34,174 nt of DNA from a virus (Duplodnaviria; Caudoviricetes). Within the stretch, counting starts at the first letter, position 1. Each line of letters opens with the position of its first letter. Location: positions 1-34,174 of IMG/VR virus record IMGVR_UViG_3300017589_000286; one strand, given 5' to 3'. Positions 1-5,160 of the stretch are shown in pieces. The notes under the pieces were generated by a model. It saw nothing but the letters and a program-made list of their open reading frames with translations. It made no database searches and had not been told where the DNA came from. A program made the translations under genes and the position numbers.

Positions 1-1134
1 CTATTGAGTTTTCATGAAACTTGCAAATTTGTCTGCTGTCTCCTTGCGAACCTCTTTTGTCACATGGTAGTAGATCTGTCTGGTTGTCTGATCATTGCTG
101 TGGCCAAGTCGTTTTTGAATCTCTTCTAAGCCGACTCCGGCAGCTGCCAGCAGGGAAGTATGCGTGTGTCTTAGCTTGTGTGGGGATAAATCCGGATTGT
201 CGATACCCAGCTCCAGAAGGATCTTGCGCATTGGAGCACCTGCTCTGTCATAACGTAGCAGAGTACCGTTAATGTTCTGGAATACGTGTTCGGTGTATTC
301 GGTGTGGGGATACTTCAGCTTCCATTCGGCTTGGCGAACTTTCATTCGCTTCAGGATCTTCAGCGTTCCCTCATCGACACCGATCACACGCCGACTGCTC
401 TTTGTCTTGGGTGGTCTTACATATTGGCCTGTGATTCCTAATGCTCGACTAGTGGTCTTATTCACGGCTAGAGTCATATTCTCAAAGTCGATATCATTCC
501 AAAGCAGTGCTGCAGCTTCACCCGGACGAAGCCCGGTAAAGGATAGCAAATGGTAATACTCATAGAGTGGTGGTTCAAGTTCTTTCGAAGCCTCGAGGAA
601 TCGGATGAGCTCATCTTTTTCAAGATACTTAGGCAAGGGAGTTTCAAAAGTTTCTTCCTTTGCCGGGAGAGTTACACCCCGATATGGTACTGCTGATATG
701 ATCTCTTTATCCATGGCATAGTTGAAGATCATTCTAAGTGTGATGTGGTAGTCTTCGACACGTTTCGGTGTAAACATTTTACTTAGAGTATTGATGACAT
801 CTTGGTATTTTCTCCTGCTAATCAGAGCCACATTTTCTTTACCAAGAATAGTATTTAACCTCCGAACCATGGATAACCGATTAACTGCACTCGTATGCCG
901 GTGATTCTGAGCATAACTCTGCAGCCAGTGTTCAGCCAACTGCTCAAAGGTCATAAGCTTATCGGGGGTATAGTCTGGTAGTCTGCCAAGAGATTCGAAT
1001 TCACCTGCCGCTGCAATAGCGGCTTTTTTTGTTGTGAATCCGCTCAAAGTTTTTTGACTTCTCCGGCCATCAGGCAGCCTGGGGAGCTCAACTGTAACGG
1101 ACCACAGTTTCCCACGTTTTCGGTAATAGGGCAT
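1..1134 (-). CDS. int: Tyrosine recombinase / phage integrase (377 aa)
   Basis: N-terminal arm-binding-like region (GFTTKKAA), TGLRPGE, HKLRHTH, LGH and catalytic-Tyr region (QIYYHV); start moved to ATG 1134 because SD GGAGGT lies at 1142-1147. Confidence 0.96.
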   Translation of the reverse strand: MPYYRKRGKLWSVTVELPRLPDGRRSQKTLSGFTTKKAAIAAAGEFESLGRLPDYTPDKLMTFEQLAEHWLQSYAQNHRHTSAVNRLSMVRRLNTILGKENVALISRRKYQDVINTLSKMFTPKRVEDYHITLRMIFNYAMDKEIISAVPYRGVTLPAKEETFETPLPKYLEKDELIRFLEASKELEPPLYEYYHLLSFTGLRPGEAAALLWNDIDFENMTLAVNKTTSRALGITGQYVRPPKTKSSRRVIGVDEGTLKILKRMKVRQAEWKLKYPHTEYTEHVFQNINGTLLRYDRAGAPMRKILLELGIDNPDLSPHKLRHTHTSLLAAAGVGLEEIQKRLGHSNDQTTRQIYYHVTKEVRKETADKFASFMKTQ

Positions 1135-1267: not shown

Positions 1268-1296
1268 TTGACAAGCTTGTCAGACTGATGTATATT
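1268..1296 (+). promoter_or_regulatory. Sigma-A promoter of the NYN transcript
   Basis: TTGACA(1268-1273)-17 bp-TATATT(1291-1296); perfect palindrome TGACAAGCTTGTCA (1269-1282) overlaps the -35. Confidence 0.8.
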
Positions 1297-1301
1297 TTAG
1301 A

Positions 1302-1381
1302 TGGATCGGGAAACCGATTTAGACGAATATGGGGCTGATTCGGCTTTCGAGCCGGCAGCCCCTTTAGACTTTTTAAGGGGG
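1302..1381 (+). ncRNA. Structured RNA leader / candidate small RNA upstream of NYN nuclease
   Basis: Hairpin ATCGG-GAAA-CCGAT (1305-1318); hairpin GGGGCTG..CGGCT-TTCG-AGCCG..CAGCCCC (1331-1362); TTTAGA at 1296, 1318 and 1363. Confidence 0.6.
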
Positions 1382-1387
1382 ATAAAT

Positions 1388-1996
1388 ATGCTCAGAGCAA
1401 TGGTGTTTATTGATTTTGAGAATTTCAATATTGCCTTGGTAGAGTATTATCGAAAACTTAATTCTAGCAGTTCTTCAATAACCCCAAGATTAGACTACAA
1501 ACAATTACCATGTAATATAGTTCAGATGCTAAAAAATGAGCACTGTTTATGCAAGACGTTTTTATTTGCTCCTAAGCCTGATTTATTTTTAATGGAAAAT
1601 CCTAATAAAAGAAGCACCTACGAATGGCTGCAGGGCATGAAAAACTATGATAATTATGATGTTATAGAAGGCGCCCATGTATCGAGACCTATAGGTGATA
1701 ATCCACCTTCTACGAAAAAAATCAATGATCAGAATACATACTACGTAGAAGAAAAGGGAACCGATATTAACTTAGCAACCCATGTTGTGTCCAAAGGCCT
1801 GTTAAACGCATATGACACAGCGGTTATTGTAAGCGGAGACTCTGACTATCTTCCAGTAATGAGCATCTTAAACACGATTGGTAAAAATGTTGTTGTTGTT
1901 GGTGTTTATGGACAACCCTTAACAAGGTTTAAACAGGTAACCGATCAGCAAATTACTCTTAAAGATAATTTTTTTCAAGACTGCTTAAGGCTTTAA
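1388..1996 (+). CDS. NYN (LabA/DUF88, PIN-like) ribonuclease
   Basis: FIDFENF, EKGTDINLA and IVSGDSDYLP acidic motifs; SD AGGGGG before ATG 1388; AT-rich. Confidence 0.9.
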   Translation: MLRAMVFIDFENFNIALVEYYRKLNSSSSSITPRLDYKQLPCNIVQMLKNEHCLCKTFLFAPKPDLFLMENPNKRSTYEWLQGMKNYDNYDVIEGAHVSRPIGDNPPSTKKINDQNTYYVEEKGTDINLATHVVSKGLLNAYDTAVIVSGDSDYLPVMSILNTIGKNVVVVGVYGQPLTRFKQVTDQQITLKDNFFQDCLRL

Positions 1997-2029
1997 TATT
2001 GCCATTGGCATTGAAACAATTTGAATAGT

Positions 2030-2067
2030 AGGCTCGCTTATACCGAAAGGTAAAGCGGGCTTTTTTT
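2030..2067 (+). terminator. Intrinsic terminator of NYN gene (between convergent NYN and HIRAN genes)
   Basis: GGCTCGCTT.TACC-GAAA-GGTA.AAGCGGGCT followed by a T run. Confidence 0.85.
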
Positions 2068-2797: not shown

Positions 2798-3406
2798 TTA
2801 AAACTTCGCTCTCAATTCTACTACCTTACCCACGATAGTAACAGGAAGAGCAGCAATTTGCTCATTTGAATAGAATACAGGTTCGTAACTTGGGTTCGTC
2901 GGTATCAGCATGATGCCTTCGGACCCATTTTTTATTTTCTTAATTGTCGCATCGAAACCATCAACCAGGACAACAGCGATATCCCCGGTGCTGCAGCTTG
3001 ACTGCTGACGAACGATGACTACATCGTTTTCAGAGAAACGCGGTTCCATGGAATCGCCCTTAATCTGCAAACCGAAGTAAACCCCGGTCGAGGCCATATT
3101 GTGATCAATCTCTTCGTAGTCAATGATATCTTCGATTGCTTCGAGAGGGATCCCGGCGGCGATCCGACCCAGGACGGGGATCCAGAGACCTCCGGTTGAG
3201 CGAGGAATACCACTATTTACACCCATTAAGTTATCAATGGAAACCTTGAAGATTTCTGCTATCTTGGCAAGCATTTCCGGATTGGGTGATGATTTGTTTG
3301 ATTCCCATTTAGCAACTGTCTGTTGTGAAACAAAAAGAATTTCTCCGAGCTTTTTTTGCGATATGTTACTAGATTCTCTTACTTTACGAAGTTGTTCTCC
3401 AAACAT
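2798..3406 (-). CDS. cI: CI-like repressor (XRE HTH + S24 autopeptidase)
   Basis: HTH (SQQTVAKWES), AAG cleavage site, GDSMEP catalytic Ser, TIKK catalytic Lys. Confidence 0.95.
   Translation of the reverse strand: MFGEQLRKVRESSNISQKKLGEILFVSQQTVAKWESNKSSPNPEMLAKIAEIFKVSIDNLMGVNSGIPRSTGGLWIPVLGRIAAGIPLEAIEDIIDYEEIDHNMASTGVYFGLQIKGDSMEPRFSENDVVIVRQQSSCSTGDIAVVLVDGFDATIKKIKNGSEGIMLIPTNPSYEPVFYSNEQIAALPVTIVGKVVELRAKF

Positions 3407-3756: not shown

Positions 3757-5160
<1,404 letters not shown>

Follow-up and report, generated by a model that had tools for sequence, protein, structure and literature searches.

What is the folded RNA in front of a small predicted ribonuclease gene for, when that gene sits with its own promoter and terminator between the integrase and cI genes of a phage? 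The window, i.e. the whole stretch of 34,174 nucleotides that we analysed, is a 34-kb virus record in which profile searches found integrase, cI, replication, head, tail and holin genes, and hence represents a temperate tailed phage. The NYN unit, consisting of a promoter, a two-hairpin leader, the NYN gene and a terminator, is real (Table 1). It occupies the + strand of the int-cI interval, and int, two small ORFs and cI are on the - strand; the first-pass annotation had placed all of its elements correctly, including their orientation opposite to int and cI. Comparable promoters precede most of the homologue leaders that we displayed. Transcription likely starts at about 1302-1304, and the leader in the window is 86 nt long. 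The terminator of the unit is absent from the output of a pattern scan, yet it scores well in terminator scoring. A 231-aa ORF from ATG 1301, which is the protein-database version P0002, was rejected as the NYN start because the Shine-Dalgarno site and the homologue alignment point to a start at 1388. Gene callers run some NYN proteins through the leader (P0002, window 1301-1387, and P0103), which hides the RNA in annotations.

Table 1. Coordinates of the NYN unit and of its two context genes in the window.
Feature	Position	Strand	Basis or remark
sigma70/sigmaA-type promoter, TTGACA-17-TATATT	1268..1296	+	predicted; 11/12 consensus matches
-35 box TTGACA; 17-nt spacer; -10 box TATATT	1268..1273; 1291..1296	+	
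Hairpin 1, GAAA loop, plain stem (core 1305-1318)	1302..1320	+	folding
Tail motif 1, UUUAGAC, mostly unpaired (core UAGAC 1320-1324)	1318..1324	+	
Hairpin 2, bulged stem-loop, family apex GG-CU-UUCG-AG-C	1331..1362	+	covarying; borderline terminator score
Tail motif 2, UUUAGAC plus five consecutive U; a short RNA may end here	1363..1374	+	
Shine-Dalgarno AAGGGGGA	1375..1382	+	read from sequence; alternative-fold pairing with 3' arm of hairpin 2
Predicted ribonuclease of 202 aa, NYN/LabA (PIN-like), stand-alone	1388..1996	+	PF01936
Predicted intrinsic terminator of the unit	2031..2067	+	read from sequence; score 30.5
Context: tyrosine integrase	1..1134	-	PF00589
Context: cI-type repressor (HTH and S24)	2798..3406	-	profile search

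Two further genes of the window were recorded. An Abi_alpha gene (4072-4911, - strand; PF14337, E 4e-33; PADLOC PDC-S47) is inserted against the early operon and is a candidate for a second defence gene within the same phage. A 119-aa ORF (2088-2447, - strand), convergent with the NYN gene, has a weak match to PADLOC PDC-M03B (E 6e-4) and no Pfam hit.

Judged by profile and predicted structure, the NYN protein is of PIN-like fold, as had been proposed. It matches PF01936 with E 1e-12 (48.9 bits against the curated cut-off of 24.2), and its structure model (pLDDT 95) has VPA0982 (2qip) and the MARF1 NYN domain as top Foldseek matches (E 4e-8, probability 1.0). The acidic residues D9, D126, D151 and D153 are kept in all 134 distinct full-length homologues (134/134). 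From these residues, and from the precedent of a B. fragilis NYN whose equivalent first aspartate is essential according to the accessible part of its description (10.1101/2024.04.08.588522), we predict RNase activity. The subfamily is distinct and stand-alone, with 37 representatives at E<1e-30. The homodimer prediction scored 0.02, which speaks neither for nor against a dimer.

The leader of the window folds better than 200 of 200 shuffled versions (z -4.5). For the family, we used 191 loci, i.e. the best 80 of 363 genome stretches, the full set of 31 viral loci and, from a metagenome scan that covered part of the data, the best 80 of 328, dropping the homologues that were truncated in frame or outside 165-260 aa. 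Upstream folds with z<-2 occur in 108 of 144 distinct regions (window included) compared with 6 of 144 coding controls, and structure-based parsing finds the leader in 106 of 134 distinct homologues; 50 of the 51 named carriers are Bacillota. Flavonifractor plautii is one of the carriers. Covariation was assessed on 36 window-like leaders chosen by hand. In hairpin 2, 84.9% of the cells are paired versus 69.5 after shuffling, 12 of the 14 pairs have two-sided changes, and such changes fill 85 cells versus 28 (0 of 500 shuffles), in a shuffle control that relatedness can inflate; slid registers of the hairpin are 33-58% paired. By these comparisons the leader is conserved and its hairpin 2 covaries, so that the check on homologue leaders suggested by the first-pass annotation was passed. 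Whatever its function, the RNA motif is well supported at the sequence level, and Rfam has nothing that matches the leader, either of the window or of 15 homologue loci. The INPHARED phages gave no match.

The conserved features are in part other than those first singled out. Three TTTAGA copies had been thought to bracket the stems, and they are indeed found at 1296, 1318 and 1363. The first one (1296-1301) overlaps the -10 box, precedes the likely start and has no counterpart that we could spot by eye in the homologue listings; it is probably not transcribed, and hence two repeats count, 45 nt apart, with each of the two hairpins followed by UUAGAC. TTTAGA is not enriched in the whole window (26 seen versus 27.7 expected), so the weight of the hexamer comes from its conservation in homologues. 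As to the tetraloop caps, the GAAA loop and the TTCG loop (1346-1349) are present; what the family conserves is instead the bulged stem and the tail geometry, with loop sequences varying throughout and hairpin 1 varying in both sequence and length. The UUCG loop of hairpin 2 is closed by U-A, and the extra-stable UUCG tetraloop is one closed by C-G.

What recurs in our comparison is a stem-loop with a bulge, whose loop is followed at 14-16 nt by a UAGAY-type tail. Both hairpins have such a tail, and the two tails are 38-47 nt apart in 103 of 105 leaders, a count made with a weight matrix written after seeing the sequences and thus partly circular, and after five chance folds (L026, L054, L046, L042 and L035) had been removed by hand. 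The tail variants tend to be shared within a locus (AGA/AGA in 52, AGT/AGT in 11 and AAA/AAA in 3), and identical tail cores are found in 68 of the 105 leaders versus 36.7 by a shuffling that is not tree-aware; the tree-aware concordance test has only 3-5 independent pairs, too few to reach significance, and is not significant. Over 77 non-redundant leaders, the apex pattern, which was written by hand from the sequences and has a background of 45 in 716 coding windows, is found in hairpin 2 of 26 leaders, in hairpin 1 of 21 and in both hairpins of one; the remaining 29 have it in neither. The distance from loop to tail is 14-16 nt in 45 of the 49 cases, irrespective of which hairpin has the apex. 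An apex that occurs in either hairpin at a fixed distance from the tail suggests a movable protein-binding unit, and we infer that the protein, namely the adjacent NYN, recognises the roughly 13-bp bulged stem together with the tail. Recognition of the leader by NYN is, in our judgement, quite likely.

The number of hairpins ranges from two to four per leader in distant relatives, with three in L012, L072 and L079 and four on a Carboxydocella plasmid (NYN 28% identity; fold z -5.9). Inspection by eye shows that an NYN at E 5e-13 has two inverted repeats resembling hairpins as well, with AAAU after each. L030 (3899-3990) has the same apex on both hairpins, as if the unit had been duplicated. 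On a Leptospira plasmid (L204, 1430-1490; distant NYN, 33% identity), two hairpin-like inverted repeats were seen by eye before the start, without a tail and without a clear ribosome site. A RAGATH-31 RNA lies on the opposite strand about 120 nt upstream of the leader of L102 (3727-3781, - strand). Covariation between NYN residues and the tail, with position 32 scoring highest, was not used because 7 of the 10 AGT loci cluster on the tree.

The RNA and the nuclease gene can also be searched for from the RNA side. A covariance model made from window-like leaders gave 46 matches in 667 kb, 43 of them at leader positions, and 30 of these 43 are outside the training set. The RNA model alone, run on four overlapping genome samples (151, 151, 151 and 49 genomes, with 35-108 candidates scored per genome), gave seven distinct hits, four of which are upstream of NYN genes: one training sequence, one already among our loci and two new. 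Two others, in L207 and L213, score about 30 bits, have no NYN gene downstream of them and are taken to be chance terminator-like hairpins. In L205 (58 bits), promoter and leader are complete, the NYN gene breaks off after its seventh codon (MKKVMVF) and a Crp-type gene comes next; no NYN was found in this assembly, which is of unknown completeness. The loss of the nuclease past codon 7 with the leader intact fits an antitoxin, as a single case. The L205 leader (1411-1630, - strand) is now upstream of this Crp/Fnr-type gene, and the RNA occurs in 1 of 49 genomes of that genus. An exact-pattern search of viral contigs gave 11 hits, i.e. nine NYN leaders and two chance hits in genes, and no phage decoy RNA among them; the pattern covers the window-like subtype.

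The distribution of the cassette is patchy and often phage-borne. It is rare, being found in 2 of 401 genomes of one family, one of which is the seed genome. Among 60 hand-chosen loci, with L186 set aside, integrase, recombinase, relaxase, lysis or virion genes lie within two genes of NYN in 13 of 43 leader-bearing loci versus 0 of 16 leaderless ones. In L030 and L065 the NYN gene is between a cI-type gene and an integrase, as in the window. The neighbours vary, and many loci are among chromosomal genes.

Twenty-six homologues have no leader at the NYN locus, which requires at least six changes on a FastTree tree (L186 and L076 were excluded from this leader-loss count), and all 26 retain D9, D126, D151 and D153. 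The enzyme thus seems not to be lethal without the RNA. Twenty of the 26 form one clade, 12 of them named as Synergistaceae, in which NYN is often located before a beta-lactamase-family gene (7 of 11 scanned). Both K136 and R201 are replaced in 20 of 20 proteins of this largest leaderless clade, and leader-bearing proteins have K136 in 95 of 98 and R201 in 85 of 98; from the sequences, the replacement looks like domestication with loss of RNA contacts, as a single event. The six other leaderless homologues keep K136; one of them, L008, shares 79% identity with a leader-bearing protein and has R201 as well. At L035, L039, L040, L043, L053, L160 and L168, which belong to the leaderless clade and are mostly Synergistaceae where named, NYN precedes the beta-lactamase-family gene and usually a metallophosphoesterase, and K136 and R201 are replaced. 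In L011 and L013 (3960-4000), a peptidyl-tRNA hydrolase gene, confirmed with Pfam in L011, immediately precedes NYN.

Our leading reading, which we place somewhat short of an even chance, is that the leader RNA binds and inhibits its own NYN nuclease, as an RNA antitoxin like that of AbiF/RCd22. The cassette would be a mobile one-gene unit, the leader stem-loops with their UAGAY-type tails binding the NYN encoded just downstream. Most transcripts would stop or be cleaved close to the U-rich tail that follows the last hairpin and give an RNA of about 45-75 nt in excess; NYN would recognise it by stem and tail, and may cut at the tails. The bound RNA would block the enzyme, and binding beside the ribosome site would also lower NYN synthesis. 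Depletion of this RNA by an infecting phage or by stress would leave NYN free to degrade RNA and arrest the cell. The tail is not specifically depleted in the NYN coding sequence itself (0.72 of expected versus 0.75 for TAG generally), which makes it improbable that five bases alone, in the absence of the hairpin, are the cut site. In the assembled contigs of RNA runs for the relative L084, a single 11.7-kb contig, possibly DNA, covers the locus in two runs; a low-depth contig stops 3 nt after tail 2 and another crosses the leader into the gene, and we take neither as evidence.

We counted in favour of the antitoxin reading the folding and covariation of the leader, the shared tail cores, the apex that keeps its distance from the tail in either hairpin, the NYN genes found by the RNA model, the L205 leader left intact after nuclease loss, the hairpin number of two to four, which is like that of antitoxin arrays, the mobile-gene context, the replacement of K136 and R201 in the leaderless clade, and the promoter-two motifs-terminator-toxin layout of AbiF/RCd22. 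Against it we counted the 26 leaderless homologues with all four aspartates, the weakness of hairpin 2 as a terminator, the missing avoidance of the tail, the lack of viral decoys, the non-significant tree-aware concordance, and the hairpin units being structural rather than near-identical sequence repeats, as well as two points from partly accessible sources: HEC-09 gave no protection, and the B. fragilis NYN is sequence-nonspecific.

A close rival, and in our view a tentative but serious possibility, is feedback in cis only. NYN would bind or cut its own leader at the hairpin-tail sites, destabilising the mRNA or blocking the ribosome site; the RNA would be an operator and not an enzyme inhibitor, and NYN would not have to be toxic. 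In 66 of 77 leaders, 19-26 nt separate tail 2 from the start codon downstream, and the persistence of leaderless copies with all catalytic aspartates agrees with such feedback, as does TAGAT just before the ribosome site in L011 and L013, which have no hairpins. Hairpin 2 is, by its sequence, a weak terminator: it passes the terminator score, a formula from the literature, in 10 of 77 leaders, and scores -1.4 in the window. The 3' arm of the window hairpin 2 can pair with the Shine-Dalgarno (-12.1 kcal/mol); however, arms and Shine-Dalgarno sites of one locus pair no better than those of different loci (794 of 5000 permutations do equally well), and a co-evolved anti-SD switch is not supported. 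A single operator site would be enough, yet two to four hairpins are found, the apex hairpin is often promoter-proximal and far from the ribosome site, and carriage in phage accessory slots is left unexplained. The ribonuclease genes rnc, rne and pnp, which are core housekeeping genes, have autoregulatory leaders. They resemble the NYN unit in that stem-loops which the RNase may recognise precede its gene, and differ from it in that the NYN cassette is rare and mobile.

The hairpins could also act independently of NYN, hairpin 1 shielding the 5' end and hairpin 2 being a leaky terminator that sets low expression, with the tails as degenerate U-tracts. The sequence after hairpin 2 is U-rich (mean 5.5 of 10 nt), with full U-tracts in a few homologues (L031, L044 and L164), and the hairpin has the G-run/C-run polarity that is typical of terminators. 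We nevertheless consider this improbable: tail 1 is conserved yet not U-rich (3.1 of 10), the apex and its 14-16 nt distance from loop to tail are kept in either hairpin, and the AG interrupting the U-tract is conserved although it would weaken a terminator. Very doubtful is a leader RNA that serves as cofactor, guide or product, with NYN excising hairpin units that activate or direct it or act on other RNAs, since the leaderless copies retain the active site and the single-stranded linkers (about 10-16 nt, A/U-rich) offer no spacer-like segment, even though the regular spacing of the tails, the hairpin arrays of variable sequence and the trimming of crRNA by the CRISPR-associated NYN of B. 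fragilis (10.1101/2024.04.08.588522, accessible part) would suit it.

How does the antitoxin reading compare with known systems? AbiF/RCd22 of the Clostridioides difficile prophage phi027 is likewise prophage-borne, with a sigmaA promoter and an RNA of about 100 nt with two stem-loop motifs before the RNase gene. The accessible text of its description reports that the RNA represses in cis and neutralises in trans, that it works uncut between its two motifs, and that Rfam RF03085 is named for the AbiF RNA (10.1101/2025.04.15.648962). RCd22 has, in the same text, two copies of one motif and a separate terminator (promoter, motifs, terminator, toxin), whereas NYN leaders usually have one apex hairpin and one plain hairpin with shared tails and no separate terminator. 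The AbiF toxin is given there as HEPN, and the toxin candidate of the window is NYN/PIN-like; Rfam shows no abiF RNA motif at the leader of the window or of the 15 loci, and Pfam gives NYN only and no HEPN. ToxIN, AbiQ, CptIN and TenpIN also have repeated RNA units and then an endoribonuclease gene, as far as the accessible parts of two sources go (PMC4627078, PMC13064643), and the 45-nt unit spacing of the NYN leader equals the CptI length. According to these parts, ToxIN-type toxins are Kid-like, while the window protein is NYN by profile and fold, and their antitoxins are near-identical pseudoknot repeats, while the NYN leader units are divergent stem-loops for which only nested structures are predicted.

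Among NYN/LabA proteins (PF01936; VPA0982, 2qip; MARF1 NYN, 5yaa/6fdl; B. fragilis NYN), the fold and the conserved aspartates are common, and the window subfamily is stand-alone and about 40 residues longer than VPA0982. The available portions of the sources describe no RNA leader that we could find for VPA0982, MARF1 NYN or B. fragilis NYN, and they give the latter as sequence-nonspecific (10.1101/2024.04.08.588522). The HEC-09 profile (PADLOC PDLC04163) matches the window NYN with E 9e-13, and HEC-09 is a NYN-domain defence candidate too. It differs by a weakly predicted N-terminal helix-turn-helix-like region and by its location in Hma systems, and it protected against no phage tested; the accessible part of the same work has no mention of an RNA partner that we could find (10.1101/2024.01.29.577857). 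A 2026 review counts AbiQ, AbiF and AbiV as type III, and NYN or PIN does not occur in its accessible portion (PMC13064643). NYN, LabA and DUF88 are absent from the main text of a 2026 noncoding survey and from one supplement of PMC8632094, as far as these are accessible, and no NYN-RNA system was found in the literature searched, which had most subscription journals outside its scope.

In a type III system, a structured RNA lies upstream of the RNase gene, and here the promoter, the covarying leader and the gene are in one unit, with co-transcription predicted. The RNA is made of repeated units; the NYN leaders have two to four hairpin-tail units with shared tails that are not near-identical repeats. 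A terminator between RNA and toxin gene gives an excess of the RNA; in this place hairpin 2 passes the score in 10 of 77 leaders. The toxin is not kept without its antitoxin, whereas 26 homologues have no leader in a search that covered the NYN locus. Of the type III-like reading made at first pass, an RNA upstream of a predicted RNase gene in an AbiF/RCd22-like layout stands, and the 26 leaderless, intact homologues weigh against a strict antitoxin. The NYN system is not a member of the ToxIN-type, AbiF or HEC-09 families by toxin fold or RNA family, and may work similarly.

Sequence comparison shows the leader to be a conserved RNA that goes with a single NYN subfamily and matches no catalogue entry. 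The fullest version of the proposal, a widespread, undescribed Bacillota family of NYN/PIN-fold RNA-antitoxin anti-phage systems in which NYN reads a stem-loop with a bulged stem of 13 bp and a protein-matched short tail and cuts the leader into inhibitors of about 45 nt, seems to us rather unlikely. If the leader is an antitoxin, the NYN fold would be added to the type III class of toxin-antitoxin systems and PIN-like enzymes would join the Kid-like and HEPN ones as RNA-inhibited toxin nucleases, so that at least three folds would be ones on which RNA antitoxins have arisen. The stand-alone NYN/LabA proteins, most of which have no known substrate, would gain a defined one. If the leader acts in cis only, a bacterial NYN enzyme would still have a natural RNA ligand in it, and the tail variants and the leaderless relatives would be ready controls.
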